From Armatimonadia bacterium (GTDB taxonomy: Bacteria > Armatimonadota > Zipacnadia > Zipacnadales > UBA11051): a stretch of 21,334 nucleotides of DNA. The notes beneath the pieces were generated by a model. The model was not told the DNA's origin, did no database searches, and worked only from the letters and a program-made list of their open reading frames with translations. How positions within the stretch are numbered: the stretch's first letter is position 1; each line of letters opens with the position of its first letter. The stretch is from NCBI GenBank assembly GCA_039683575.1, contig JBDKRC010000309.1, positions 1 to 21,334 of the forward strand, read 5' to 3'. Both the position numbers and the translations under genes were made by a program. Positions 2,123-15,301 of the stretch are shown here, piece by piece.

Positions 2123-2277
2123 ATCCAGTTCCGGCTCAACGGTCATGATTGACAGTTGCAGAAACATTGCGCGTTTACTGTAGATTGCGAGACTTCTCCG
2201 GGTCAAGACTAATAGCGGAGTTCTGTCTCCACAGGGAGGCTCTGTCTCCGCGCACCCGTCCAAACTGGAGCCGCAAT

Positions 2278-4971
2278 ATGAACTGGATACGCTACTCTGG
2301 TCGGATCATCCTGGCATTGGGCGTGATCGCGATTGGGGTGTGGGCCACCACCAATGAGTTGGTGGACAAGCCAGTCACGAAGTTCTGGCTCGGCCTGATG
2401 GTGTACCTCGTCGCGGCTGAATTGGCGTGGACCCTGGCTGATTACTACCTCACGGATTCGCAGTCTCGCCTTCCCCGGCGCGGGCTGCTGCGGTTGGCGA
2501 GCAGCGACCGCTTCATTCTCACCCTCAACAGTTGGCTCTATGACGGTGGCCGGTGCCGTTACGTGGACATCCTGACCAAGCAGGACGTGCTGCGCGACGC
2601 CCATCAGTCACTGCAGGCGGCGGTCCTGACAAGGGAGTCGCGCCCGCGCGTACACCTGCTGCCAGGGGCAGTAGGGACGGGGCGGAGCACGCTGCTGTTG
2701 CGGCTGGCGCGCATCCTCGCCGAGAACAGCCAAACCGTCTTCGTAGGGCTTCCGGGACCAGAGATTGCCGGTCTGGAGACCGTGATTGAGACGGCGCGGA
2801 ACCGGCAGGTCTACCTGTTCATCGATGATCTGGACCTGCAGCCGCAGGCGGAGGAGTGGCTGTACGATATCTATCGCAGCCAGTTGCCGATTGTGGTGGT
2901 GGCGACGACGAGCGAGGAAACTCGGCCGCAGTATGGCGGGCACAAGCTCGCGGCCGTGCGCCCGGCGGGGCTGCTGGCGGAGGGGACGGCGCACCCATCG
3001 CCCGTCACGCCCAACGACCTCGCGGAACTGGCCCGGAAGTTGCAGTCACTCGGCCGGATGAAGCGTCAGGAGGTTGCTGTCGGGACGACGACGGACCTGC
3101 TGGAGGCGACGCGGTACATGCAGGGGTGGGATCCGAAGCAGGGACTGTGGCAGGACCTGGACAGAGGACCGAAACTGGCGCAAGAGCAAAAAGTGATGCT
3201 GGCGCTGTGCGGTGCGGCGGAGTTGGCGATACCCGAGAGCCTGTACGGAGCGATCTTTGGCGAGAAGGCAATCGGGCGTTGGGCGAAGGCAGACCTCGTG
3301 TCGCTGCAGCATTGCCATGCGCTGCCGCCGCATCACAAGGTGTGCCTTGATCTGCTGCGCGAACTGGACCCGGCGAGTGAGACGGTGCATGGGGCCCTGG
3401 ACAAACTGACCAAGCTCGTGCTGCCAGTGACGCCGGTCTTCGCCGTGCGGCTGCTGTACGGGCTCGCGAAGGAAGACACGCTGCGAGAGGTTGCGCGGGC
3501 GCAGGTGCAGGCCCTGCAGGTGCAGGCAATGCAGGGGCAGGTGCGGGAGAGTTGGCCGCAGGCGGTACAGCGGGCGTGGAGGCGGGTGCTGGAGGAATTG
3601 GACCTGGTCACGGCGGACGTGACGCAGGACGAGAGCTATCCTCCTGAACTACTGATCGCCATGTCCAGGGCCTTCGACCGCAAGGACTATGAGGGCGCGC
3701 TGGCGGCGGCGCAGAAGCTTGCGAAGCATGAGTTGTATGAGAGCGCGGCGGGGTTCAATATAGCGCTGGCGCTGTGTCATCTGGGCCGGATGGAAGAGGC
3801 CGGGGCCGTGCTGGCGAAACTGAAGTCCGAGCCACCGGGGACGCACTACCTGCGCGGATTGATCGCCGAGAGCAGAGGCGACTGGCCCGCGGCACTGGAT
3901 GAGTATGAGGAGTCACGGAAGGCGGATGAGGTGCAGTTGATGGCGACGCGCCAGCTCGCCTTCGCGTACCTCAAATCGGGCGCCCCGCGGGCAGCATTGC
4001 CGCTTTTTGAGGCAGCGTTGCTACACACTCCGAAGAGCGCGGACCTGTATGGCGGGCTGGCGGTGGCATACCTGCAGGCGGGAATGGCTCAGCGGGCGGC
4101 GGCGCAGAGCGCGCGAGCGATACAGGCGGGGGTGGAGCCGAGTGAGGCGCGCAAGGCGGTGGCCAGCGCGTGTGCGAAAGTGCGCGCCTACAGCCGGGTG
4201 GCAGCGGAACTTGAGGCATGTGTATCGTACGAAAGCGGGGACCTGGAGGCCTGGAGCGGGCTGGCGACGGCATGCCGGTGGCTGGGGCGATTCGAGCGCG
4301 AGGCGCAGTGCCTGGAGCAACTGCAGGAAGCGCAGCCGATGACGGATGACTTGCGGCTGCAGATGGCTCGCAACCAGCGTGATCTGGGCCATCCCGAGAC
4401 CGCCTTGGAGCTATTGCAGCCGCTACTGACGGCGGACCAGCCGCCTCTGCCGGCACTGCTGCTTGCGGCGGAAGTGGTCGCGGGCAATAACGACCCGGTG
4501 CTGCAGGAGACGCTCGCGCAGCAGGCAGTGGCGCAAGGGGAGGCGAGTGGCTGGGCGCAGTACTGGCTGGCGGATAGCGAGACGCAGAGCGGCCGCACGG
4601 AGCAGGCGGGCGAGCACTATCGGGAGGCCGTGCGCAGGCTCAAGGCGCAGGTCAATGAGGGCGTAACGCCGGGGCGGGCGGCGAAGTGTTGGCAGGCGAT
4701 CTACCTGTCCGCGGTCCAGCTCGGAGACGAGGATCTCGCCAGGGAGGCGGCGCGCAAGGCACGCCAGGAGGCTGCCATCTGCGAGGCGCTGGGGGCGGAG
4801 GTCGAGTCGGTCGTGCATCACCGCGCGGTGCCGACGGCTCTGTTCCTGGAGAGCCTGCCGAGCACGTTACCCGCAGGCCCTCCGAGCGAGCCAACCGAGG
4901 CGCAGCCCGCGCCGAACCAGCCAGAGGTTCGGAGCTTTCGCAAAGGGGGACCGTTTCGGGCGCGAGGGTGA
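2278..4971 (+). CDS. Membrane-anchored (2 TM) protein with degenerate STAND-like P-loop domain and C-terminal TPR repeats
   Basis: GGAG at 2267-2270 precedes ATG 2278. Two hydrophobic segments (IILALGVIAIGVWA; FWLGLMVYLVAAELAW), Walker A-like GAVGTGRS, Walker B-like VYLFIDD, and TPR-type helices (AGFNIALALCHLGRMEEA, THYLRGLIAESRGDWPAA, LYGGLAVAYLQAGM). Confidence 0.75.
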   Translation: MNWIRYSGRIILALGVIAIGVWATTNELVDKPVTKFWLGLMVYLVAAELAWTLADYYLTDSQSRLPRRGLLRLASSDRFILTLNSWLYDGGRCRYVDILTKQDVLRDAHQSLQAAVLTRESRPRVHLLPGAVGTGRSTLLLRLARILAENSQTVFVGLPGPEIAGLETVIETARNRQVYLFIDDLDLQPQAEEWLYDIYRSQLPIVVVATTSEETRPQYGGHKLAAVRPAGLLAEGTAHPSPVTPNDLAELARKLQSLGRMKRQEVAVGTTTDLLEATRYMQGWDPKQGLWQDLDRGPKLAQEQKVMLALCGAAELAIPESLYGAIFGEKAIGRWAKADLVSLQHCHALPPHHKVCLDLLRELDPASETVHGALDKLTKLVLPVTPVFAVRLLYGLAKEDTLREVARAQVQALQVQAMQGQVRESWPQAVQRAWRRVLEELDLVTADVTQDESYPPELLIAMSRAFDRKDYEGALAAAQKLAKHELYESAAGFNIALALCHLGRMEEAGAVLAKLKSEPPGTHYLRGLIAESRGDWPAALDEYEESRKADEVQLMATRQLAFAYLKSGAPRAALPLFEAALLHTPKSADLYGGLAVAYLQAGMAQRAAAQSARAIQAGVEPSEARKAVASACAKVRAYSRVAAELEACVSYESGDLEAWSGLATACRWLGRFEREAQCLEQLQEAQPMTDDLRLQMARNQRDLGHPETALELLQPLLTADQPPLPALLLAAEVVAGNNDPVLQETLAQQAVAQGEASGWAQYWLADSETQSGRTEQAGEHYREAVRRLKAQVNEGVTPGRAAKCWQAIYLSAVQLGDEDLAREAARKARQEAAICEALGAEVESVVHHRAVPTALFLESLPSTLPAGPPSEPTEAQPAPNQPEVRSFRKGGPFRARG

Positions 4972-5122: not shown

Positions 5123-5174
5123 GCCAGCATGGGGAGCAGTACCCGCTGGCTGTGATGCTTTGGCGGAGGTCCCG

Positions 5175-6071
5175 ATGGCAGGCAGGCATGTGGTTCTGAG
5201 CTTACGCGAGCAATTGCCGGGCGGTCGGCCGAGGCCCGCGTTCGCGCTCGTGTTGCTGCTGGTGAACTTGCTGCCGTGGCCGGTGCTGTCTGGGGTGGCG
5301 TGGAGCGCAGACGACGTGACGATGATGCCGATCAACCCGGCGGCCGCAGCGGAAACAATCGTTGGCCGGTACCTGACGGAGGGCCCGAAACGATTCACCA
5401 AGCCAACGTCTCTGCGGGACTGCGATCTCGATGCCCGGCTCAAGGGACAGGTTGAGATTGAGGTGTGGCGGCGTCTGGAATGGCTGCCACACCGAGCGGA
5501 GCGCCGGGTGAAGGAATGGCTCGTGCAGTTGCAGCCAGATCCCGGGCAGGTAGTCAGTCTGCCGCAGCTCCTGAAGCTGCCTGGTGATGAGGGAGGGGGG
5601 CTTGAGGTGTCCGGGCTTGGAGACCTACCGGAGGAGTCGTTCACTGAGCAGACTATGTCCGGCAAAGCCGGAGGATCGGCTGGCTGGCCCAAGGCCGAGA
5701 TCGGCCTGGAGTTAGGCCTCGGCCTTACCGTCCTGGAGTGGTCGCGCTACAGCGTCTGTCGCATCCCCCATGTCTCAAGGCAAATCACCTTCTGCAGCGG
5801 CGTGTCGCAACGAACCATGATGATCTGGCTGACCTTCGGGCCTACAGACAACGGCGCGGACCTGCACCGGTGGGCGACCGCGGTCCTGTGCCGCGGCCAG
5901 GAAATCGGGTTCGGTCCCGACCCCGTGCGCCATAGCGGCAAGTGGCGCTTTCGATGGGGGAAACATGCTCTGTCGAGAGAACTGGCGGAGCTGGAGAAGC
6001 GGAGGGAGCAGGCGTGGAGTTCTTCAGAGGAGCTTCACCCGAAGCTTATCGCTTTCGGCGCAGAGGGGTGA
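5175..6071 (+). CDS. Putative secreted hypothetical protein (paralog of the next gene)
   Basis: GGAGGT then ATG 5175. Hydrophobic signal-like stretch AFALVLLLVNLLPWPVLSGVAWSA. Shares LEWSRY and IGFG blocks with 6129..6959. Confidence 0.7.
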   Translation: MAGRHVVLSLREQLPGGRPRPAFALVLLLVNLLPWPVLSGVAWSADDVTMMPINPAAAAETIVGRYLTEGPKRFTKPTSLRDCDLDARLKGQVEIEVWRRLEWLPHRAERRVKEWLVQLQPDPGQVVSLPQLLKLPGDEGGGLEVSGLGDLPEESFTEQTMSGKAGGSAGWPKAEIGLELGLGLTVLEWSRYSVCRIPHVSRQITFCSGVSQRTMMIWLTFGPTDNGADLHRWATAVLCRGQEIGFGPDPVRHSGKWRFRWGKHALSRELAELEKRREQAWSSSEELHPKLIAFGAEG

Positions 6072-6128: not shown

Positions 6129-6959
6129 ATGAGCAGGTCTGAGCTATTGAGGCTGTCCATGCTCGTGCTGTTGATGGTGCTGCTGGTGATGGGAGTGGCG
6201 GCGGCTGGGACACCGCCGGTGACGATCGATGATCCCGTCATTCCGCTGAACCCGGGGATGATCAACACCCGGGCTATGGATGAGTACTTCCGTCTGAATA
6301 GCGCCGCTGATGCGGACAAGAAGTCTCTGGAGGAACTCCTGGGGAATACGCCGGCTGACCCCATGTGGGTCAGGAAACTGTTAAGTATTCTCACCAACAC
6401 AGACTTCGAGGCGCCTCCCATGTCCCCCGCTGAACTCACTCATGAGGAGTGCCGAGCGTATCTGCTCGACAAGGACGTCTCGATCAAGATCGGCTATGCT
6501 CCCGCAGGGCTGAATCTGGGGGCGGACAAGAAGAAGACGACCCTCATTCTTGAGTGGAGCCGGTACCGGCGCTACCAGGTGCCCTACAAGATAACAGTGC
6601 CGACCGGCGCAGACGGCTTTTGCCGGTTCCGATACGGAGTGGCGGCGCGTATGGTGATGCACACCACGAAGGAGGGAGTCGAGTTCGGCGTCACGGGCGG
6701 CTGTCTGGGATTGGGCGTGAAGGCCAGCGTCAAGGAAGTGAAGTGCGACTACCAGATCATTGGCTTCGGTTCCGCTGACGCCTCGCGCGCTCTGCCCGCG
6801 CTGGTGGATCTCAGTGATGCACAGGGCGTCCGACACGTGACAGAGGCATTCAGGACCATCAGAGAGTGCGCCTGGAAGTGCGTACAGCAGGGGGGCAACG
6901 ACAAGGTGTTCTACCCGCAGGTCATTGCGGTGGAGTCCAAGCCGGCGGTGGCGCCATAG
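6129..6959 (+). CDS. Putative secreted hypothetical protein
   Basis: Signal peptide MSRSELLRLSMLVLLMVLLVMGVAAA, purine-rich RBS GAAGGGGA, typical GC3-rich codons. Confidence 0.8.
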   Translation: MSRSELLRLSMLVLLMVLLVMGVAAAGTPPVTIDDPVIPLNPGMINTRAMDEYFRLNSAADADKKSLEELLGNTPADPMWVRKLLSILTNTDFEAPPMSPAELTHEECRAYLLDKDVSIKIGYAPAGLNLGADKKKTTLILEWSRYRRYQVPYKITVPTGADGFCRFRYGVAARMVMHTTKEGVEFGVTGGCLGLGVKASVKEVKCDYQIIGFGSADASRALPALVDLSDAQGVRHVTEAFRTIRECAWKCVQQGGNDKVFYPQVIAVESKPAVAP

Positions 6960-7190: not shown

Positions 7191-7694
7191 ATGGCTGTTA
7201 ACCCTGTTCCGGGTATCAGTAACCCGCGGCTGAGGCGGCTGCATGCAGATTTGGCCGCTGTCATCGAGCTTACGAGGGCATCCGATCTGATCGCGGCGTC
7301 CTATGCTGGCAACCCGCCCGACCGCTATCGGATCCTTTATCGCTGCCGGGGGTTGTATCTGCCCGAGGGTACGTCGGAGCCGGAGTTGCTAGACCACCAC
7401 GAGGCTGATTACTACCTGCACCGGGATTACCCGCGGCGTCCGCCGCAGATTCTCTGGCGGACCCGGATCTTCCATCCGAACATCATCAGCGCCGAGAACG
7501 GTGGCGGCGTATGCATCGGCTCGTGGACGCCCTCCGAGTCGCTGGCGGACCTGGTGCTGCGCGTTGGTGAGATGATACAGTACCGGCTGTACAACCCCGA
7601 GGATCTACTCAACCGGCAGGCTGCCGCGTGGGCTGAGGCTCACGCAGACGAGCTGCCGGTAGATGACCGCCCGCTGGCGGTTTACGGACTTTGA
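7191..7694 (+). CDS. Ubiquitin-conjugating enzyme E2 (UBC fold)
   Basis: Canonical UBC motifs in order: DYPRRPP (YPxxPP), IFHPNI, GGVCI (catalytic Cys108, codon 7512), SWTP, and LNRQAA (PLNxEAA-like). Confidence 0.92.
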   Translation: MAVNPVPGISNPRLRRLHADLAAVIELTRASDLIAASYAGNPPDRYRILYRCRGLYLPEGTSEPELLDHHEADYYLHRDYPRRPPQILWRTRIFHPNIISAENGGGVCIGSWTPSESLADLVLRVGEMIQYRLYNPEDLLNRQAAAWAEAHADELPVDDRPLAVYGL

Positions 7695-7734
7695 GAGCCG
7701 CTGCCGCGCCACTTCGCTGTTGGAGAGTACCCTA

Positions 7735-8736
7735 ATGAAGAATTACTGGCGGTTGGCAATCTGTGCGTGCGTGCTGCTCACGGCAGCCCTGGCCCAGGCC
7801 CAGGAGGGCGGCCTCAAGGAAGCGGTGGACAAGATCGGCGACGCCGTGGTGACGGTGGTGGCTGGCAATCGCGCCGGGGCAGGGCTCATCGTCAACTCCG
7901 ACGGCTATGTGCTGACCAACAAGCATGTGCTTGATAAGGCGCAGGCGGCAGACGTTATCTTGCGCAACGAGGAGAAGGTCAGCGCCAAGGTCGTCAGATT
8001 CGCCACAGAGCGCGACCTGTGCCTGCTGAAGGTCGAGCGACAGCATCTGCCGGCGGTGCAGTTCGCGAGCTCTAAGGGGTTGAGGCAGGGGGAGGACGTG
8101 GCAGCCATCGGCGCGCCGCTCGGACTGCCGAACACGGTGACCAAGGGCGTCATCTCGGCGACGGACCGCGATATCTCCGGGCAGAAGTTCCTGCAGATTG
8201 ACGCGGCACTCAATAAGGGCAACTCCGGCGGGCCAGTCATCAACGAGAAGGGGCAGGTCATTGGGATCGCGACGAAGGTGGCGAAAGAGGCGGAGAACAT
8301 GGGCTTCGCGATCCCGAGTGATGATGTAACTGCCTTTCTTAGTGAGGCTAACGTAACATTCGCGACGGCCCTGACCGCGGAGGCCCCGGAGGAAGCAAAG
8401 CCGACTGCCGAGGCTGAAGCGCCGGCAGCTGAGGCTGCTCCCGCAGTGCCTGAGGCGCCGGCGGCACCGGCAATAGGGTTGCAGAATCCATGGATGCTGC
8501 TCGCGGCGGCTGCGCTTGTATCGTTCCTGGTCTCTTTGATTACTGCCTTGCTTGTGTCCCGCAGCGCCGCAAGAGAGGCTGTCGTGCCTGCTGCGCCAGC
8601 GGGGTATCCTGCGCCCGCGCCGACGCTTGGATATCAGCAGCCGCCAGCCCCTCCGTTGGCGGCACCCATGCCTCCGCCGCCAGCGGCTCCCCCGCCTACT
8701 GACGATTTGAGCGACATCGACATCGAGTTGCGATAG
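7735..8736 (+). CDS. Membrane-anchored trypsin-like (S1C/HtrA-type, PDZ-less) serine protease
   Basis: GGAG RBS then ATG 7735. Signal peptide ending AQA, catalytic triad TNKHV / RDLCLL / GNSGGP, Ala/Glu/Pro linker, TM helix WMLLAAAALVSFLVSLITALLV, and a Pro-rich tail ending DDLSDIDIELR. Confidence 0.9.
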   Translation: MKNYWRLAICACVLLTAALAQAQEGGLKEAVDKIGDAVVTVVAGNRAGAGLIVNSDGYVLTNKHVLDKAQAADVILRNEEKVSAKVVRFATERDLCLLKVERQHLPAVQFASSKGLRQGEDVAAIGAPLGLPNTVTKGVISATDRDISGQKFLQIDAALNKGNSGGPVINEKGQVIGIATKVAKEAENMGFAIPSDDVTAFLSEANVTFATALTAEAPEEAKPTAEAEAPAAEAAPAVPEAPAAPAIGLQNPWMLLAAAALVSFLVSLITALLVSRSAAREAVVPAAPAGYPAPAPTLGYQQPPAPPLAAPMPPPPAAPPPTDDLSDIDIELR

Positions 8737-8758
8737 GCACATTAGCGCAAGTTATAGT
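8728..8758 (+). promoter_or_regulatory. Possible internal promoter for the Ubl gene
   Basis: AT-rich 78-nt spacer with TATAGT (8753-8758). TTGCGA lies at 8728-8733 but with a long 19-nt spacer. Strong RBS GGAGGT before 8815. Confidence 0.3.
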
Positions 8759-8814
8759 CACAAACATAGACAGACATATACCGAAAACTCCAGCGAATAG
8801 AGCGGAGGTGCCTT

Positions 8815-9084
8815 ATGGGCAAAGTTAACGTGGTCATCATGGACACAACCGGCAGTAAAGAGCAGAAGGCGTCGCTGCCGGACGATGCACCCGTGCGCCG
8901 GATCATCGCCAAGCTCGTACAGATGATGACCCTCCCCACCACGGGCCCGGACGGTCAGCCGCTCAGCTACAAGTTCCACCACAAGGCCTCCGGCAAGCAG
9001 CTCACCGATGAGCAGACGCTGGGCGAGGCCGAAGTCAAGGATGGCGACGTGCTGCGCCTGCAGCCGGAGATCACCGCCGGTTAG
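8815..9084 (+). CDS. Ubiquitin-like beta-grasp protein (YukD/EsaB-like) with free C-terminal Gly
   Basis: 89 aa. GKQLTDEQTLGEAEVKDGDVLRL parallels ubiquitin [23 protein letters not shown]. Ends ...PEITAG-stop and lies between E2 and E1. Confidence 0.9.
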   Translation: MGKVNVVIMDTTGSKEQKASLPDDAPVRRIIAKLVQMMTLPTTGPDGQPLSYKFHHKASGKQLTDEQTLGEAEVKDGDVLRLQPEITAG

Positions 9085-9123
9085 CAGCGCTGCTGGGTCT
9101 CAACCATCTTCTCAGGAGGCCCC

Positions 9124-10323
9124 ATGCCATCCGATACCCCGCTTGATGAAATGGATGTAGTCCTCGAGGAGGACCGCTATGATCGCCTGCGCCTGATCCC
9201 CTGGTGGGACCAGGAGCGGCTGCGTGCGGCGCGGGTGATGGTTGTGGGCGCCGGCGCGCTGGGCAACGAGATCATCAAGAACCTCACGCTCTTGGGCGTC
9301 GGCCGGATCTTCATCGCTGACCTTGACCGCATAGAGGACACTAATCTCACCCGGGCCATCCTCTTTCGCCATGGCGACGTCGGCCGCTGTAAGGCGGAAG
9401 TGGCCGCGGAACGCGTACCCGAGATCAACCCGGACGTGATCGCCCAGGCCTTCGTCGGGGACATCAACTACGATCTCGGGCTCGGCGTCTTCCGCGACAT
9501 GGACCTGGTTTTCGGCGCGCTGGACAACCGCGAGGCGCGAGTAACGATCAATGCCAACTGCTGGAAGCTCGGCAAGACGTGGATAGATGGGGCGATAGAG
9601 CTGATGCAGGGCGTAGCGCGGGTGTTCGCGCCAGCCGAGGACGCGCCGTGCTACGAGTGCACGATGTCGGAACTCGACTACAAGCTGCTTAGCCAGCGGC
9701 GATCCTGCGCCTTGCTTTCGCGGACGGATGTGTTACAGGGCAAGGTGCCCACGACGCCGACGATTGCCTCGATCATCGGCGGGATCCAGGTGCAGGAGGG
9801 GATCAAGGTCCTGCATAGCGACCGGGAGCTGCCCAATCTTGCCGGGCGGGGCTTCTTCTTCAATGGGCTCAACCATGATTCGTACGTTGTGCAGTACCAG
9901 CGGCGTTCTGACTGCCCTGCGCACGAACAGATGTTCGAGATAGTCGAGTTGGATGCTTCGAGTGCCGACTTGACCGGCCGCAAGATGCTCGAGATTGTGC
10001 AGGCGGAGGTGGGGCCGAAGGCCGTAGTGGAGTTTGAGCGGGAGCTCTGCACCTACCTGAGCTGTTCGCGTTGTCAAACGAAGCACGAGCACTTCCGCTC
10101 CCTGGGCAGAGTCACCGTTGACGATGCGGTGTGCCCAACCTGCCACGAGCTATGCGAGCCGGAGCTGACTCACAGCCTGAGCGGCGCCGAATCGTATCTG
10201 GACATGACCTTGGAGCAAATGGGCATTCCGGCGTATGACGTCGTTACGGGCCGGCAGGGGCTGACGATGAAGCACTTCCTGCTCAGCGGCGATCGATCGC
10301 GAGCGCTGGGTGCGCTGGCGTAA
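9124..10323 (+). CDS. E1 ubiquitin-like activating enzyme (ThiF/MoeB/E1 family) with C-terminal Zn-ribbon extension
   Basis: DRYDR, VMVVGAGALGNEIIKNLTLLGVG, D..IEDTNLTR, KAEVAA, ALDNREAR, PCYEC (C176/C179), candidate catalytic Cys195 (RRSC), CPAH, and extra CSRC/CPTC pairs. RBS CAGGAGG. Confidence 0.93.
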   Translation: MPSDTPLDEMDVVLEEDRYDRLRLIPWWDQERLRAARVMVVGAGALGNEIIKNLTLLGVGRIFIADLDRIEDTNLTRAILFRHGDVGRCKAEVAAERVPEINPDVIAQAFVGDINYDLGLGVFRDMDLVFGALDNREARVTINANCWKLGKTWIDGAIELMQGVARVFAPAEDAPCYECTMSELDYKLLSQRRSCALLSRTDVLQGKVPTTPTIASIIGGIQVQEGIKVLHSDRELPNLAGRGFFFNGLNHDSYVVQYQRRSDCPAHEQMFEIVELDASSADLTGRKMLEIVQAEVGPKAVVEFERELCTYLSCSRCQTKHEHFRSLGRVTVDDAVCPTCHELCEPELTHSLSGAESYLDMTLEQMGIPAYDVVTGRQGLTMKHFLLSGDRSRALGALA

Positions 10324-10336
10324 CAGGTGACTTTTC

Positions 10337-11284
10337 ATGGACCAACCGTCAGACGACCTGGAGCTCGAAATAGCGCCGACTGAGGCCCCCGCGAGTACGG
10401 CGGCCAGCCCGGCGGTTCTGGTCTCATCGCAGGCCTTCGACGAGATGACGCAGCATGCGCTCGAGGAGGCGGAGCACGAGATCGGCGGCATCATGGTCGG
10501 CTCCGTCGTAGAGGGCACCGGGACCGTCGTCATCATCGAGGACGTGATCCGCGGCACACATATGACCCATAGCCGCGGTAGCGTGACCTTCACCCACGAA
10601 TCCTGGACCGAAATCAACCGCGTCAAGGACGAGCGCTTCGCGGACAAGCGTGTAGTGGGCTGGTATCACAGCCACCCCGGCTTTGGGATCTTCCTCTCCA
10701 ACCACGACCTGTTCATCCACGAGAACTTCTTCAATCTGCCGTGGCAGGTGGCCTTTGTGACCGATCCCAGGGCCAGTACCTGTGGTTGTTTCGTGTGGCA
10801 GGACAAGACAATCGTTCAGGACCTTGATTTCGGTGTACTGACCTCGCCACAGGAGCATCTCAGCGGCCGTAGCAAGCCCACAGCGCCGGCACCTGCACCA
10901 ACCGCATCGGCTCCGCAGGCGACCCAGCAGCCGGTTTTCAACATGCCCGCGCCGACCCCGGTGCTGCGCCGAGACCCTGGGCTCTCGTGGGCTCTCGGGA
11001 TTCTGGCGATGCTTGTGGCCCTGGCTGTCGGTCTCAGCCTCGGGAACTTCGACGCCGGACGTCGAGCCTCCGCCAGCATCCAGGCCCTGAACGTCAAGCT
11101 GGACACCATCGTCAGTGACATGCAGGAGCTGCGCAGTGCCGTGTCAGAGCGTCAACCAGCGGCGCAGGCTGAGTCGCGCGAGCCAGCTTCGGAGCCGAAA
11201 GCGCCCCCTCCAGCACCCACACCAGCCGCAGTTCCTCCAGAAAAGGGAGATTCCGGTGCCGGATCAGCCCCACCAAGCCCCTGA
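10337..11284 (+). CDS. JAB/MPN+ (JAMM) metallo-isopeptidase with C-terminal TM helix and coiled coil
   Basis: EIGGIMVG and VVGWYHSHPGFGIFLSNHD (intact E..HxH-x7-S-x2-D), TM helix LSWALGILAMLVALAVGLSLG, then heptad-like IQALNVKLDTIVSDMQELRSAV. Confidence 0.92.
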   Translation: MDQPSDDLELEIAPTEAPASTAASPAVLVSSQAFDEMTQHALEEAEHEIGGIMVGSVVEGTGTVVIIEDVIRGTHMTHSRGSVTFTHESWTEINRVKDERFADKRVVGWYHSHPGFGIFLSNHDLFIHENFFNLPWQVAFVTDPRASTCGCFVWQDKTIVQDLDFGVLTSPQEHLSGRSKPTAPAPAPTASAPQATQQPVFNMPAPTPVLRRDPGLSWALGILAMLVALAVGLSLGNFDAGRRASASIQALNVKLDTIVSDMQELRSAVSERQPAAQAESREPASEPKAPPPAPTPAAVPPEKGDSGAGSAPPSP

Positions 11285-11915
11285 AGAAGATGAAATTGAG
11301 ATAGAAGCGTTGTCGGTCGAGGCCGCACTGCCGTCGTGGGAGCCGGAGGGACCGCCTGGCGCGGTAACCGTGCGCTGTGGCGGCGCTCTGCAACCTCCCC
11401 TGGCGTGCTATGCCCTCGGTGTTCTTGAGGATGTTCAGGGCCACGGGGTTGCCGAGCCTGGCCGGGAGGTCGGAGGCATCCTCCTTGGACAGTTCGTACA
11501 GACGTCCCAGGGGCCGCTGACGCGGGTAGATGACATGATCATCGCCGACAGCGACCAGGCGAGCCGCACGCACGTCACCTTCACCCACGCGTGCTGGCAG
11601 CAGATCCATCGCGAACTGGAGCGGCGAGACGACGGGGCGCAGATTGTTGGCTGGTACCACACTCATCCGGGATTTGGGCCGTTTCTCTCCGCCCAGGACC
11701 TTTTCATCCAAGAGAACTTCTTTGCCCATCCGCTGCACGTCGCCCTGGTCTTTGATCCGGTTCAGAGCAGCTTTGCCAGCTTCGGCTGGTGGGATGGCCA
11801 AATAGTTCGGGCCGCGGGCTGCTATGTGTGGGCCTCAGGGCCTGAGGTTGCCGACCTTTCGGCCTTTCTGCAGACGGTAAAGTACTCCGCGAAGTCACCA
11901 AATGCCACCAGATAA
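11256..11915 (+). CDS. Second JAB/MPN+ (JAMM) metallo-isopeptidase, soluble
   Basis: AGGGAG RBS (11244-11249) then GTG 11256, in frame with the ORF track entry 11115. EVGGILLG and IVGWYHTHPGFGPFLSAQD are intact. No TM segment. Confidence 0.9.
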   Translation: MPDQPHQAPEEDEIEIEALSVEAALPSWEPEGPPGAVTVRCGGALQPPLACYALGVLEDVQGHGVAEPGREVGGILLGQFVQTSQGPLTRVDDMIIADSDQASRTHVTFTHACWQQIHRELERRDDGAQIVGWYHTHPGFGPFLSAQDLFIQENFFAHPLHVALVFDPVQSSFASFGWWDGQIVRAAGCYVWASGPEVADLSAFLQTVKYSAKSPNATR

Positions 11916-12870
11916 TGACGATTACCTTGATGTCGAACTGGACGACGAGCCCGAGGGCGCGCCGGAGAACGTCCTGGATGTCAGCCTGGACGACGCTGCC
12001 CCCCCCAAACCCCCGCGCAAACTCCCCTCGACGCCCCCCAAGCCCGAGGCAAAGCCCGCAGAACCAGAATTGCCGATGATCTCAGGCGGGATCTGCGAGC
12101 GCTGCGGCTACGCGCTGCGCCCCCTGGAGGACCATTGCCCACGTTGCGGGCGGATAGGGGCAGAAGCGCCTCCGCCCGCCGAGGCTCCGGATCGACTGCC
12201 TGCACCGGCAGAGCTACCAGAGGTTGCGCCCGCCGCGCGGCGTTCCGGATGCTCTGCCTGGGCCGTGGCTGGCAGTTTGACGCTGGTACTTGCCATCGCG
12301 GGGCTGCTGGCGTGGCTGTGGCTCCAACCGCGGTTCCGGGCGCAGCGCGAATACCGCGCGGGATTGCACGCTCAGCTTGCCGGAGACTTCAAGGGCGCGC
12401 GCTTCCACTATATGAAGGCGCTGGAGTTGAACCCTAACATGGGGCTGGCGGCGCTCATGATGGGCACAACGTACCTACGAATCGGCGACCCGGCCATGGT
12501 GAGCTCGATTGACCAGTTGGTCAAGCAGGCGATGTGGGGTCAGACGGGCGATCTCGACCGCGCGGACCAATGGTTCCGGAAGGCAATCGCGATTGGGTCG
12601 CAGCTTCCGGCCTCGACCGAACTTGCAGACCCCAAGATCAACACCCCTCCGCGACTAAGGGCGTTCGCACGGGCCTTCATGGCGCTCACAGCGCTGGTGC
12701 GGGCCTCTGCGGCCCTGCAGGCGGATCAGCTCGAGGATGGGATGAAGTGGCTGGGCGTGGCCCAACAGGAGGGTCAGGCCGCGCTGACCGATGATCCGGG
12801 GAATGAGCAGGCGCAGAAGATCCTGGGCTCAATACCGCCGAATCCGCCCACAACGGCACCATCTCAGTGA
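11902..12870 (+). CDS. Bitopic membrane protein: acidic/Pro-rich N-terminus, Zn ribbon, TM, TPR domain
   Basis: CERC-x10-CPRC, TM helix AWAVAGSLTLVLAIAGLLAWLWL, and TPR EYRAGLHAQLAGDFKGARFHYMKALELNPNMGLAALMMGTTY. Overlaps the upstream JAB gene by 14 nt. Confidence 0.82.
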   Translation: MPPDNDDYLDVELDDEPEGAPENVLDVSLDDAAPPKPPRKLPSTPPKPEAKPAEPELPMISGGICERCGYALRPLEDHCPRCGRIGAEAPPPAEAPDRLPAPAELPEVAPAARRSGCSAWAVAGSLTLVLAIAGLLAWLWLQPRFRAQREYRAGLHAQLAGDFKGARFHYMKALELNPNMGLAALMMGTTYLRIGDPAMVSSIDQLVKQAMWGQTGDLDRADQWFRKAIAIGSQLPASTELADPKINTPPRLRAFARAFMALTALVRASAALQADQLEDGMKWLGVAQQEGQAALTDDPGNEQAQKILGSIPPNPPTTAPSQ

Positions 12871-12876
12871 TTAGCC

Positions 12877-12905
12877 TTGCAAGCGCGAGCGGGAAGGATT
12901 ATTAT
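12877..12905 (+). promoter_or_regulatory. Sigma70-type promoter for rsmG-parA-parB
   Basis: TTGCAA (12877-12882)-N17-TATTAT (12900-12905). Confidence 0.6.
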
Positions 12906-12937: not shown

Positions 12938-13591
12938 ATGTTTCACGTGAAACATTTTTCCAGTTCCGACACCCCATTGACCTCTCAACTCGCCTCCACC
13001 ATCACCAGTCTTCAACTGTCCTCCGACGAGTTCGATATTCGCAGGCTTGCCGACCTTCTGGCCTGGCTACACCCCGCAGCGGCCCGCCTGGGCTTGACCA
13101 ACTACCGGGACATCCAGACCTATATCGCCCAGCTAGTTGTACCGGCTCTGTACCTGCTCTCCCCCACTCTGGCGCCGTATCGCCTGTCGCCGATGCTTGA
13201 TTTTGGGGCTGGTTCAGGGGCTGTCGGCCTGTCTCTGGCGTGTTTGCTCCCCGAAGCCGAGGTAGTGCTTGCAGATCGACGCAGCCGTGTGGTACAATTC
13301 CTCGACCTCGCTGTTAGCCGGGGCGGCCTGCGCAACTGCCGCAGCCTGCTGGCTGACCTCTCAGCCCCGTCTCCGGAGCAGCAAGGCTCTTGTGGCACGG
13401 TTTTGATAAGGGCGTACGGACCCACAACAGAGGCCCTGAGGCAGGCTGTCCTCTGGACGCGGCCTGAGGGTACCATCGCCCTGTGGCATCAGCCGCCTGC
13501 CCCTGACCCTCCCGATCATCTCACGCGAGCAGATACCTTGCAGACTTCCGTGCCTGCGCTCGCGCTCACAATATACCGCCGAGATACCTGA
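12938..13591 (+). CDS. rsmG: 16S rRNA m7G527 methyltransferase RsmG/GidB-like, divergent; start codon uncertain
   Basis: SAM motif MLDFGAGSGAVGL, LADRRSRVVQFL (equivalent to DSxxKRxxFL), LIRAYG (equivalent to SRA), and the classic position upstream of parAB. Confidence 0.75.
   Translation: MFHVKHFSSSDTPLTSQLASTITSLQLSSDEFDIRRLADLLAWLHPAAARLGLTNYRDIQTYIAQLVVPALYLLSPTLAPYRLSPMLDFGAGSGAVGLSLACLLPEAEVVLADRRSRVVQFLDLAVSRGGLRNCRSLLADLSAPSPEQQGSCGTVLIRAYGPTTEALRQAVLWTRPEGTIALWHQPPAPDPPDHLTRADTLQTSVPALALTIYRRDT
12939..12954. promoter_or_regulatory. parS: parS centromere site
   Basis: Perfect 16-bp palindrome TGTTTCACGTGAAACA, the established chromosomal parS consensus, next to parAB. Confidence 0.97.
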
Positions 13592-13620
13592 ATTAGCCAT
13601 TTCGGCGCTGGAGGGCATGT

Positions 13621-14400
13621 ATGGTAGACACCTATGCCATCATCAACCAAAAGGGTGGCGTGGGAAAGACCACAACGGCGGTCAACCTGGCCGCCTGGGC
13701 GGCCCACGATGGCAAAAGAGTGCTTCTGATCGACGCTGACCCGCAGGGCAATGCCACAAGTGGCCTGGGCATTAACCGCGCGGGCCTAACGCGCTGTCTG
13801 TACGACGTGCTGACCTCGGACATGACGGGTGGACCGCCCGTGCCGCTTCAGGAGGCCATTGTGGCTTCCTGCCAGCCAGGGCTTGATGTGTTGCCGGCCA
13901 CCATCAATCTGGCGGCCGCGGACATCACCCTTGCCAGCGCCATTGCGCGCGATACCCGCCTTAAGCACGCTCTGGGGCCCGCACAGGGGCTTTATGACCT
14001 GATCATCATCGACACAGCGCCTTCGCTCGGCGTGTTGACGGTCAATGCCCTCGCGGCGGCGCACAAGTGCGTCATCCCCATCCAGTGTGAGTACTACGCG
14101 CTGGAAGGTCTCTCCCAGCTCATGCGGATCATCAATCTGGTGCAGAGCCAGATCAACCCGGCCCTCCTGATCGCCGGGATGGTCCTCACGATGTACGATT
14201 CCCGCACAAACCTGTCGAACGAAGTCGCCACGGATGTCCGTGAGACCTTCCACGGACGCGTCTTCGAGACGACGATACCGCGCAACATCAGGCTCGCCGA
14301 GGCACCGGGGCATGGCCTGCCGGCGCTTCTCTATGATCCGCACAGCGTCGGTGCCAAACGCTACTGGATGCTGTACAAGGAGGTCTTCGACAATGCGTAA
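13621..14400 (+). CDS. parA: Chromosome partitioning ATPase ParA/Soj
   Basis: NQKGGVGKTTTAVNLAA, LLIDADPQGNATSGLG, IPIQCEYYALEGLSQL, IPRNIRLAEAP. Confidence 0.97.
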   Translation: MVDTYAIINQKGGVGKTTTAVNLAAWAAHDGKRVLLIDADPQGNATSGLGINRAGLTRCLYDVLTSDMTGGPPVPLQEAIVASCQPGLDVLPATINLAAADITLASAIARDTRLKHALGPAQGLYDLIIIDTAPSLGVLTVNALAAAHKCVIPIQCEYYALEGLSQLMRIINLVQSQINPALLIAGMVLTMYDSRTNLSNEVATDVRETFHGRVFETTIPRNIRLAEAPGHGLPALLYDPHSVGAKRYWMLYKEVFDNA

Positions 14401-15301
14401 GAGAGGCTTAGGCCGAGGGCTATCGGACCTGCTTTCGGGCGAGGTGCTGTCGCAGAGCCGCGCAGTGATCGAAGTGCCACTAGACGAGATAGAGCCCAAT
14501 CCGCACCAACCGCGGCAGATTATGGACGATAGCGCCCTTGAGGAGCTCACAGTGTCCATCGAGGCCCACGGCGTGCTGCAGCCGATCATGGTTCGCGCGG
14601 CTGGTAGCGGCTATCAGATCGTTGCGGGGGAACGGCGCTGGCGAGCCGCGAGGCGGGCTGGTCTGCGGACGGTGCCTTGTCTGGTGCAGAATGCCGACGA
14701 CGCCCAGTCCCTGGAGCTGGCGATGATCGAGAACCTGCAGCGCGATGACTTGGATGCCATTGAGGCAGCCCGTGGCTACCGCACGATGGTGCACGATTTC
14801 CGCCTCACGCAGGAGGAGGTATCCCGCAAGATCGGCAAGAGCCGTTCAGCGGTGGCAAACTCCCTGCGGCTCCTTGAGCTCCCCAGCGATGTTCAGGACC
14901 ATATTCAGGCCGGGCGCATCTCAGAGGGGCACGGCCGGGCGCTGCTGCCGCTCGTGAGCCAGGTGGACACCTTCACGACGATATTCGAGGCGGTGCTGGA
15001 GAATGGACTGAACGTGCGCGAGACCGAGCGCCTGGTTCGCGTAACGCTCAATCCTGAGCTGGCAGAGGCACCGACAGAGGCCGCTGAGAAGCCAGAACCG
15101 GCCAAATCACCGTCGCAGGCGCATGATGTAGCCCGTGATCCCCATGTCGCGGCGGCCGAGCAGGCGTTGCAGACGGCCCTGGCGGCCAAAGTGGTAATCC
15201 GGCCCGGAGCAAAACGGGGAGGCGTGATCCACATCCGTTACTATGATGGAAACGACCTGGAGCGACTGCTGAATGTCCTGGGTCAGGCGGACGAGGGGTA
15301 G
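14393..15301 (+). CDS. parB: Chromosome partitioning CTPase ParB/Spo0J
   Basis: ATG 14393 overlaps the parA stop. RGLGRGL, PNPHQPR, GVLQPI, IVAGERRWRAA, IENLQRDDL, and HTH TQEEVSRKIGKSRSAVANSLRLL. Confidence 0.97.
   Translation: MRKRGLGRGLSDLLSGEVLSQSRAVIEVPLDEIEPNPHQPRQIMDDSALEELTVSIEAHGVLQPIMVRAAGSGYQIVAGERRWRAARRAGLRTVPCLVQNADDAQSLELAMIENLQRDDLDAIEAARGYRTMVHDFRLTQEEVSRKIGKSRSAVANSLRLLELPSDVQDHIQAGRISEGHGRALLPLVSQVDTFTTIFEAVLENGLNVRETERLVRVTLNPELAEAPTEAAEKPEPAKSPSQAHDVARDPHVAAAEQALQTALAAKVVIRPGAKRGGVIHIRYYDGNDLERLLNVLGQADEG

Follow-up and report, generated by a model that had tools for sequence, protein, structure and literature searches.

The window analysed here, the 21,334 nucleotides of contig C309 (JBDKRC010000309.1) from an Armatimonadia bacterium genome of 6.2 Mb (GCA_039683575.1, 96% complete), holds at positions 7191-12870 seven open reading frames (ORFs) that, in the ORF list of the window, lie on the same strand with small gaps or overlaps between them. 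A Pfam profile search matched the seven products to a UBC-fold E2 conjugating enzyme, an HtrA-like serine protease, a ubiquitin-like modifier (Ubl), an E1 activating enzyme, two JAB peptidases of the JAMM type and a protein with a zinc ribbon and TPR-like repeats (Table 1). Inside this interval there is no promoter-like site and one weak terminator-like site, and a promoter-like site follows just after it at 12877. On the evidence set out below, the region is probably the main operon of a membrane-associated conjugation system of eukaryotic type, belonging to the class that combines a YukD-like Ubl with an E1, a UBC E2, a Prok-RING_1 protein and a JAB peptidase.

Table 1. Features of the Ubl conjugation locus, in window coordinates (aa, amino acids; TM, transmembrane segment).
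Feature	Position	Strand	Description	Match or signature
E2a	7191-7694	+	UBC-fold E2, 167 aa	Pfam UQ_con 3.6e-9; H95-P96-N97, C108
Protease	7735-8736 (ORF open from 7663)	+	HtrA-like serine protease without PDZ, 333 aa from likely start 7735	Pfam Trypsin_2 3.4e-34
Protease tail motif	8701-8733	+	C-terminal DDLSDIDIELR-COOH	conserved in protease tails
Ubl	8815-9084	+	beta-grasp modifier, 89 aa	Pfam YukD 4.6e-14; ends in EITAG right before the stop
E1	9124-10323	+	399 aa; adenylation domain, crossover loop (C195) and a C4 zinc site in the C-terminal domain	Pfam ThiF 4.2e-52
JAB1	10337-11284	+	cytoplasmic JAMM peptidase, 315 aa; TM 215-233, extracytoplasmic low-complexity C-terminus	Pfam JAB 7.3e-14
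JAB2	11115-11915	+	soluble JAMM peptidase, up to 266 aa, start uncertain	Pfam JAB 1.2e-10
ZnTPR	11902-12870	+	zinc-ribbon/TM/TPR-like protein, 322 aa	Pfam TPR_2 3.6e-7; C4 zinc ribbon; TM 121-139

The Ubl resembles conjugatable modifiers in fold and in its terminus. Its AlphaFold2 (AF2) model has a beta-grasp fold with a predicted local distance difference test score (pLDDT) of 89.4, and the top six Foldseek matches of the model include a ubiquitin variant, the Caldiarchaeum ubiquitin (6fj7, rank 2, 27% identity), yeast and human SUMO, and BilA (8tyx_A, rank 6); SUMO and complexes of SUMO1 with a SUMO-interacting motif (SIM) are also among its fold neighbours. The C-terminal Thr-Ala-Gly is exposed and invariant in 10/10 sequences. 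A scan of species-representative genomes with a Ubl alignment gave 193 relatives, from which 80 loci were kept, and this survey is biased to systems with a conserved Ubl. Across the 80 loci the Ubl is 66-98% identical to the window copy, compared with about 40-79% for the E1, and a higher identity of the modifier than of its activating enzyme is what would be expected of a hub modifier. The Ubl of Anoxynatronum buryatiense (locus record L111, 9001-9273, plus strand) ends in EITAGS, one residue past the Gly, and would need trimming, unlike the ready-made end of the window Ubl.

The E1 conserves C176, C179, R192, S194, C195, C264, H267, C314, C317, C337 and C340 in 11/11 sequences, C195 being the predicted catalytic cysteine. 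In sequence comparisons UBA7 (4.4e-30) and UBA1 (7.7e-26) match it better than MoeB (9.9e-19) and ThiF (1e-17) do. Its AF2 model (pLDDT 87.3), in which the loop 192-206 around C195 is disordered, superposes best through its adenylation domain on ThiF and MoeB structures; against the UBA3 and UBE1L chains 412-442 columns were aligned with a root mean square deviation of 10-14 Å. A ubiquitin-fold domain (UFD) at the C-terminus of the E1 was considered on this ground and is not claimed. In one Ignavibacteria record (L128) the E1 is spread over two overlapping ORFs (9281-9859 and 9729-10457, plus strand), reflecting a frameshift or an assembly error. The catalytic C108 of E2a is invariant in the alignment (17/17 E2 sequences), the H95-P96-N97 motif is read from the sequence, and the nearest solved relatives by sequence are the eukaryotic enzymes UBE2D3 and UBE2D2 (E 1.6e-6).

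Both JABs carry the E...HxH...SxxD signature, read from the sequence as E48, H111, H113, S121 and D124 in JAB1 and as E118, H182, H184, S192 and D195 (ORF numbering) in JAB2. The start of JAB2, which has orthologues in the related loci L026 and L027, is uncertain because its ORF overlaps the 3' end of JAB1 by 170 nucleotides and there is no ATG near the point where conservation starts. LysM domains are present in the JAB1 orthologues of L054, L111 and L023, which are all three of the membrane-anchored JABs scanned with Pfam. They occupy the place behind the TM segment to which the earlier note, discussed below, had assigned a coiled coil, and the window copy has no LysM domain there. The seventh protein, ZnTPR, consists of an acidic N-terminus with two DxLDVxL motifs, a zinc ribbon, one TM segment and an extracytoplasmic, helical, TPR-like domain. 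Its C65, C68, C79 and C82 are invariant in 5/5 aligned sequences and the second zinc site of a RING is missing. Over the TM and TPR part, identity with a Prok-RING_1/TM/TPR protein from another Armatimonadota class (L054:12927-13817) is 30% (E 2e-13), and ZnTPR therefore looks like a RING-less relative of a membrane-bound RING-TM-TPR E3.

The protease departs from the HtrA/DegP/DegS family in the region that follows the catalytic domain. Its likely start at 7735 opens a signal-peptide-like sequence (MKNYW...AQAQ), and after this N-terminal signal-like segment come the protease domain, then an Ala/Pro linker, one TM segment (256-274, Kyte-Doolittle) and finally a 59-residue tail. The triad H64/D94/S164, numbered from 7735, is invariant in 33/33 sequences. 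A trypsin fold with a His-Asp-Ser triad is common to the window protease and the HtrA/DegP/DegS family, whose members have one or two C-terminal PDZ domains; Pfam finds no PDZ domain in the window protease, which has the TM segment and the cytoplasmic tail in that place. Likewise, the NCBIfam Do/HtrA models align only with about residues 69-227, at 175 bits against a cut-off of 416. Since the start is signal-like and the tail comes after the TM segment, the protease domain is predicted to lie outside the cytoplasm and the tail inside.

An earlier note on this DNA, made from the letters and their ORF translations, had described seven co-directional genes of these families with intact catalytic motifs and three single-pass membrane proteins, and had read them as a eukaryote-like gene set for Ubl conjugation and deconjugation. 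The ORFs lie at the coordinates it gave and all seven products match the Pfam families it named. The invariance of the E2 and E1 cysteines and of the protease triad, together with the two legible JAMM motifs, bears out the catalytic assignments; Kyte-Doolittle analysis finds one TM segment each in the protease, JAB1 and ZnTPR; and gene content and motifs agree with the overall description.

The rest of the genome supplies parts that the window lacks. In total the genome contains one Ubl gene, two E2s and two Prok-RING_1 proteins. The second E2 (E2b, 45% identical to E2a) is encoded on contig C200, beside a gene whose product combines a zinc ribbon at its N-terminus with a Prok-RING_1 domain (PF14446, 2.2e-9) and, at its C-terminus, two TM segments. 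This product is the sole RING protein adjoining an E2 in the genome, and its gene lies outside the window. A Prok-RING_1 protein is present in 48 of the 52 related loci with at least 5 kb of downstream sequence. The window locus is thus incomplete, as no E3 is encoded in it, and the system is split in this genome, because E2b and the membrane RING protein are encoded on another contig and relatives hold all of these genes in one cluster. The other Prok-RING_1 protein of the genome (1.4e-7; L145:691-1821, minus strand, contig C63) is soluble and has a C-terminal part that was judged by eye to be ankyrin-like; it could be an E3 that recruits substrates for the same Ubl.

By their record titles the kept loci come from Armatimonadota, Bacillota, Actinomycetota and Ignavibacteria, among others, and include Syntrophomonadaceae, Gelria, Anoxynatronum, Tindallia, Acidimicrobiales and Ignavibacteria. 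In the same genus and the sister genus (L026-L028) the order is E2a-protease-Ubl-E1-JAB1-(JAB2)-ZnTPR-rsmG-parA-parB, and in other genera of the family it is E2a-protease-Ubl-E1-(HicB-like insert)-JAB(TM, LysM)-E2b-RING(TM). Other families of the order show protease-Ubl-E1-JAB(TM)-JAB-E2b-RING(TM)-JAB. The clusters are larger in other Armatimonadota classes, where the order is E2a-protease-Ubl-E1-JAB/LysM, three RING genes, RING/TM/TPR-E2b-JAB-FHA-RING, and cultured Anoxynatronum strains have a compact Ubl-E1-E2b-JAB(TM, LysM)-RING(TM) operon without the protease. Most Ignavibacteria loci have no E2 or JAB detected within 9 kb (tblastn, 1e-5). The E2a gene is followed by the protease gene in all 21 loci that have E2a, and the protease gene lies directly upstream of the Ubl gene in 46 of 74 loci with enough upstream DNA. 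The HicB-like antitoxin gene (5e-14; PF15919 1.6e-13) sits between E1 and the membrane-anchored JAB in one genus (L023:11096-11518, plus strand), and matches to it also occur in L080, L085 and L099. Within the order, an E2 of this family is found in 41/42 genomes of five families and in 0/18 genomes of two others, and across the phylum in 65 of 401 sampled genomes. Gene order is conserved in relatives, and this indicates that the cluster is more than a chance grouping.

Set against these data, the interpretation in the earlier note holds for the gene set. The outcome that it named as refuting, membrane genes that do not go along with E1, E2 and Ubl in other genomes, is not what is seen: the E2 is present in 41/42 genomes of the five families, the protease lies upstream of the Ubl in those 46 of 74 loci, and relatives have membrane-anchored JABs. 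Its description of the locus as complete does not hold, given the lack of an E3 in the window and the location of the membrane RING protein and the second E2 on contig C200, and neither does the novelty that it attached to the membrane set: the relatives examined, too, have a RING protein and one JAB that are anchored in the membrane (TM-RING and TM-JAB-LysM proteins), and a class with a YukD-like Ubl is reported to have been predicted in 2011. Its suggestion of trans-envelope signalling or membrane-protein quality control is a reasonable hypothesis for the locus.

Burroughs, Iyer and Aravind (Mol Biosyst 2011) are reported to have predicted prokaryotic E1/E2/Prok-RING_1/JAB systems with YukD-like Ubls. 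Later papers cite that work for bacterial Ubl operons containing RING proteins (PMC3417536, PMC10557695, PMC7159879). The parts list is the same here, the RING being present in this genome and in the clusters of relatives, and all five gene-level features of the predicted class, a Ubl with a C-terminal Gly, an E1 with a catalytic cysteine and an additional C-terminal domain, an HPN/Cys E2, a Prok-RING_1 protein and a JAMM peptidase, are found. The present system differs from the predicted class in being split, with a main operon that lacks the RING and with E2b and the RING protein on another contig, and in having the additional E2a, an exported HtrA-like protease with a tail motif and the RING-less ZnTPR. 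The Caldiarchaeum subterraneum operon of ubiquitin, E1, E2, small RING and Rpn11 has been reconstituted in vitro (PMC5654768, PMC6043591). The same five activities as in this archaeal set, including an Rpn11-type JAMM deconjugase, are predicted here. The RING protein, one JAB, the protease and ZnTPR are predicted membrane proteins here, an anchoring that the abstracts of those reports do not mention, and the window Ubl already ends in Gly, so that no processing would be needed.

Gene content, intact motifs, predicted topology, conservation and the tail motif considered below are the observations on which a mechanism can be built. From them we infer catalysis and its targets, a coupling to the envelope and the motif's partner, taking the chemistry from established E1, E2, RING and JAMM enzymes and from the intact motifs of their counterparts here. 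The E1 would adenylate the free Ala-Gly end of the Ubl and load the Ubl onto Cys195, from which it would be handed to Cys108 of E2a or to E2b, made from contig C200. The two-helix, membrane-anchored RING E3 encoded beside E2b would then steer the Ubl onto lysine side chains of proteins on the inner membrane's cytoplasmic side, and the tag would be removed by the membrane-anchored JAB1 and the soluble JAB2. Three components, the HtrA-like protease, JAB1 and ZnTPR, are predicted to cross the membrane. Three membrane-spanning parts and, in relatives, a JAB1 with a LysM domain that binds peptidoglycan make it probable that the system is coupled to envelope state. Its tail would tie the protease to the cytoplasmic machinery, and this tail and the similar E2b terminus would act as a docking motif for a common partner, most likely the Ubl itself, in the manner of a SIM.

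The tail motif is among the most strongly conserved features of the protease. Of 53 distinct protease tails, 50 end in [ED]-D-L-x-D-[IV]-[DE]-I-x-L-x, and D327, I330 and L332 are invariant in 33/33 sequences, as are the residues of the catalytic triad. The last residues of E2b are DDL[GD]IEL-x, and many E2b proteins have another copy upstream of these; E2a lacks a tail of this kind. We built a strict matrix from the protease tails only and ranked the 9,450 ORFs of the genome with it. The C-terminus of E2b ranks 8th, and the N-terminus of ZnTPR falls in the top 1%. The C-terminal end of the genome's FtsZ (contig C293:14994-16142, minus strand), which reads ...DEDDIDIPAFLRRR, is also among the 11 best of the 9,450 ORFs; the likeness is short and may be due to chance. 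A looser acidic pattern is found in 51/54 proteases, 51/57 E2b proteins, 49/85 E1s (at the N-terminus), 42/105 JABs and 5/5 ZnTPR proteins, and in 19/96 RING proteins, 0/25 E2a proteins and 0/80 Ubls, against a background of 1,036/9,450 ORFs. A motif shared by the whole system was considered and set aside: with the strict matrix only E2b and ZnTPR stand out, and other components are enriched by the loose pattern alone. We therefore limit the strong form of the motif claim to the protease and E2b, because the strict matrix singles out no E1, JAB or RING protein.

SIMs in eukaryotes are short stretches with a hydrophobic core of alternating residues and acidic flanks, and they occur in several enzymes of one Ubl pathway. 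The protease and E2b motif is alike in its acidic-flanked, alternating hydrophobic core and in its occurrence in several pathway enzymes, and differs in its position at the extreme C-terminus, which is no requirement for a SIM, and in that its binding here is a prediction. The tail motif may be new. The Ubl was chosen for complex prediction with the tail because it is the sole core component without the motif and because the motif is SIM-like. The prediction for the Ubl and the protease tail scored 0.39, compared with 0.00 for the best of three controls; contact agreement between runs is at least 86%, and the pLDDT of the partner is no lower than 54. The mark used for a pass is reached by 58/80 solved complexes and 2/110 mismatched pairs, and passes with a score of 0.60 or below belong to only 7 of those 80 solved complexes and to both passing mismatches. 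The predicted complex lends weak support to docking and is best taken as a lead. On this basis a bolder proposal, itself doubtful, can be put forward: the acidic motif (DLxDIDIEL) might be a bacterial counterpart of the SIM, placed at the C-termini of the protease and E2b, with looser versions at the N-termini of E1, JAB and ZnTPR. Pathway enzymes and the periplasmic protease would then bind the Ubl non-covalently, and the cluster would be a trans-envelope device that links events in the periplasm or the peptidoglycan to tagging at the inner membrane face, as a housekeeping pathway of ubiquitin-type signalling and not of defence.

Contigs of four RNA libraries, all from a single study, overlie portions of six of the seven genes, including parts of E2a, the protease, E1 and ZnTPR, the Ubl-E1 junction (9007-9539) and the JAB2/ZnTPR junction (11750-12006). 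Stretches without such cover, for example 10552-11245, are uninformative, and depth is unusable for ranking the genes. This cover is compatible with expression of the cluster genes, without proving it. Contigs from two runs carry a compensating pair of one-base insertion and deletion at 7644-7648, near the 3' end of E2a and upstream of the protease start at 7735, and many substitutions elsewhere; these differences point to a closely related strain in those samples.

Several points weigh against the reading of the locus as an envelope-coupled conjugation system with a docking motif. The RNA-library contigs are not evidence of transcription, since the libraries may hold DNA. A full-text literature search of main articles found no experimental study of the class, and all of the catalysis described above is predicted from homology. 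The use of this Ubl and E1 by E2b and the RING protein is suggested by two things only, the single Ubl gene of the genome and synteny in relatives. Of the 74 loci, 28 lack the protease, including all Anoxynatronum and Tindallia loci and most Ignavibacteria loci, and is for this reason an accessory rather than a core part; its cytoplasmic tail in the window contains no lysine and is therefore no obvious substrate for tagging. Pfam detects no LysM domain in the window JAB1, unlike in its relatives. As for the motif, E1, JAB1, JAB2 and the membrane RING protein are not outstanding under the strict matrix (rank fractions 0.04-0.30), the loose pattern is frequent by chance (11% of ORFs) with the RING proteins barely enriched, and the motif counts come from related, non-independent sequences, so that independence is overstated. 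Finally, by the calibration of the complex-prediction tool, most passes of this kind are false, save where the proposed pairing was already probable.

The genes around the cluster are of mixed character. Two kilobases upstream, at 2149-4971 (plus strand), lies a gene whose 940-residue product has hydrophobic segments at its N-terminus, a match to the novel STAND NTPase 5 domain (1.6e-10), TPR repeats and no PADLOC match. It is followed by genes for two proteins with signal-like N-termini (5160-6071 and 6129-6959, plus strand); RNA contigs lie over both (for example 5657-6069 and 6214-6659), and neither has a Pfam or PADLOC match. We considered the STAND-TPR protein and the two putative secreted proteins as parts of the system and rejected them, as they have no match beside the locus of the same-genus relative L026 and none in PADLOC. 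Directly downstream, at 12938-15301 (plus strand), are rsmG, parA and parB, a typical origin-proximal set. This adjacency is kept in L026-L028, the three examined loci of the same or the sister genus that are long enough to show it, and is not found in loci of other genera; we treat it as incidental, since it is absent from those loci.

The first alternative to be weighed is an anti-phage defence system like Bil, in which infection would lead to attachment of the Ubl to a phage protein at the membrane, with the protease or the membrane proteins serving as sensor or effector. Characterised bacterial E1/E2/Ubl/JAB operons, namely Bil and type II CBASS (antiphage signalling that is based on cyclic oligonucleotides), are defence systems (PMC11601603, PMC10557695). 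A defence role would also fit the patchy distribution on a large scale (65/401 phylum genomes), the very similar Ubls of several phyla, which suggest horizontal transfer, the HicB-like antitoxin gene inserted in the cluster of one genus, the STAND NTPase gene upstream, and weak, partial matches of the E1 and both JABs to PADLOC E1-E2 and JAB models. However, no PADLOC model matches E2a, the Ubl or ZnTPR, and the Bil-specific matches in the window are a partial one to BilD (1.7e-5) and a weak one to BilC (7.4e-3), with none to BilA or BilB; PADLOC, a check suggested in the earlier note, made no Bil call for the locus. At a threshold of 1e-8, PADLOC matches none of the seven window flank proteins and 4 of the 78 flank proteins of the window and eight loci together. 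One gene accounts for two of these four, and the remaining two resemble a generic sigma-54-type activator and an enzyme of metabolism; these flanks are no defence islands. The near-constant presence of the E2 in those five families (41/42 genomes), with the same gene order in the loci examined, is a persistence rarely seen for defence genes, and the upstream STAND and secreted-protein genes are not matched beside the locus in L026. We consider a defence role unlikely, and argue for cellular, envelope-linked machinery rather than a defence island on account of the membrane anchors, the extracytoplasmic protease, LysM (in relatives) and TPR-like modules, the steady presence in the lineage and the ordinary neighbours.

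Two further bacterial sets, Bil and Bub, were compared with the locus. The type I and II BilABCD operons (PMC10557695, PMC11601603) likewise have separate genes for Ubl, E2, JAB and E1, and thioester chemistry would be expected in both cases. E2a is of the UQ_con, HPN type, whereas a review describes a CEHH motif in BilB (PMC11354881), and Bil operons, as far as they are described, have no RING, protease or membrane anchors. Bub (PMC11601596) shares with the window an E1/E2/Ubl set accompanied by a serine protease. According to that report the Bub E1 and E2 lack the catalytic cysteine and form oxyesters, whereas the cysteines of the window E1 and E2 are invariant, and BubE is a cytoplasmic DUF6527 protein with a Ser-His dyad that acts on the Ubl, whereas the window enzyme, an HtrA relative with a trypsin fold, is a predicted exported protein. 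Assignment of the locus to Bil, Bub or a sulfur-carrier pathway was therefore rejected: PADLOC matches are weak or lacking, both catalytic cysteines are present, E2s and JABs accompany the E1, the protease is Trypsin_2 and not DUF6527, and the NCBIfam matches are below cut-offs.

A sulfur-carrier or cofactor pathway of the ThiS/MoaD-ThiF/MoeB type, in which the Ubl would be thiocarboxylated and not conjugated, is very improbable. The E1 matches ThiF/MoeB models (NCBIfam TIGR02356, 2.5e-37, below cut-off) and its adenylation domain superposes best on those enzymes, but all NCBIfam ThiF/MoeB models stay below their cut-offs, the sequence is nearer to UBA7 and UBA1, and the top Foldseek matches of the Ubl are ubiquitin and SUMO rather than ThiS or MoaD. 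Moreover, the E1 is accompanied by two HPN/Cys UBC E2s, by RING E3s and by two to three JAMM peptidases, and no thiamine or molybdopterin gene appears among the Pfam matches of the window, where the neighbours are a glycosyltransferase, the STAND NTPase, rsmG, parA and parB. A further alternative, in which the Ubl would escape conjugation and serve a secretion or envelope machine (type VII-like) as a structural subunit of YukD type, with the E1, E2 and JAB separate or vestigial, is hardly credible: its best Pfam match is indeed YukD, an NCBIfam EccD N-terminal domain is matched at 1.5e-7, EccD Ubl domains stand at fold-match ranks 32 and 38, and Bacillus subtilis YukD is reported not to be conjugated (PMC1779556), but no EssC/FtsK-type ATPase, WXG100 protein, mycosin or EccD-type membrane domain is among the Pfam matches of the window flanks and the L054 cluster, the best fold matches are conjugatable Ubls, and the invariant, exposed Thr-Ala-Gly is encoded directly upstream of an E1 with an invariant catalytic cysteine.

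The locus is thus a further case of the predicted YukD-like Ubl/E1/UBC E2/Prok-RING_1/JAB class, with the split layout and the RING-less ZnTPR as its own peculiarities. With its UBC E2s, RING E3s, Rpn11-like JABs and a modifier similar to ubiquitin and SUMO, this class comes nearest, among bacterial sets, to the design of the eukaryotic machinery. The bacterial ubiquitin-type pathways studied so far, Bil, Bub and type II CBASS, are tied by experiment or genomic context to phage defence. Through the compact five-gene operon of cultured Anoxynatronum strains the class could be studied in a living carrier. The steady presence of the system within Armatimonadota lineages and its membrane anchoring suggest an envelope-linked cellular role, which would bear on the origin of ubiquitin signalling.

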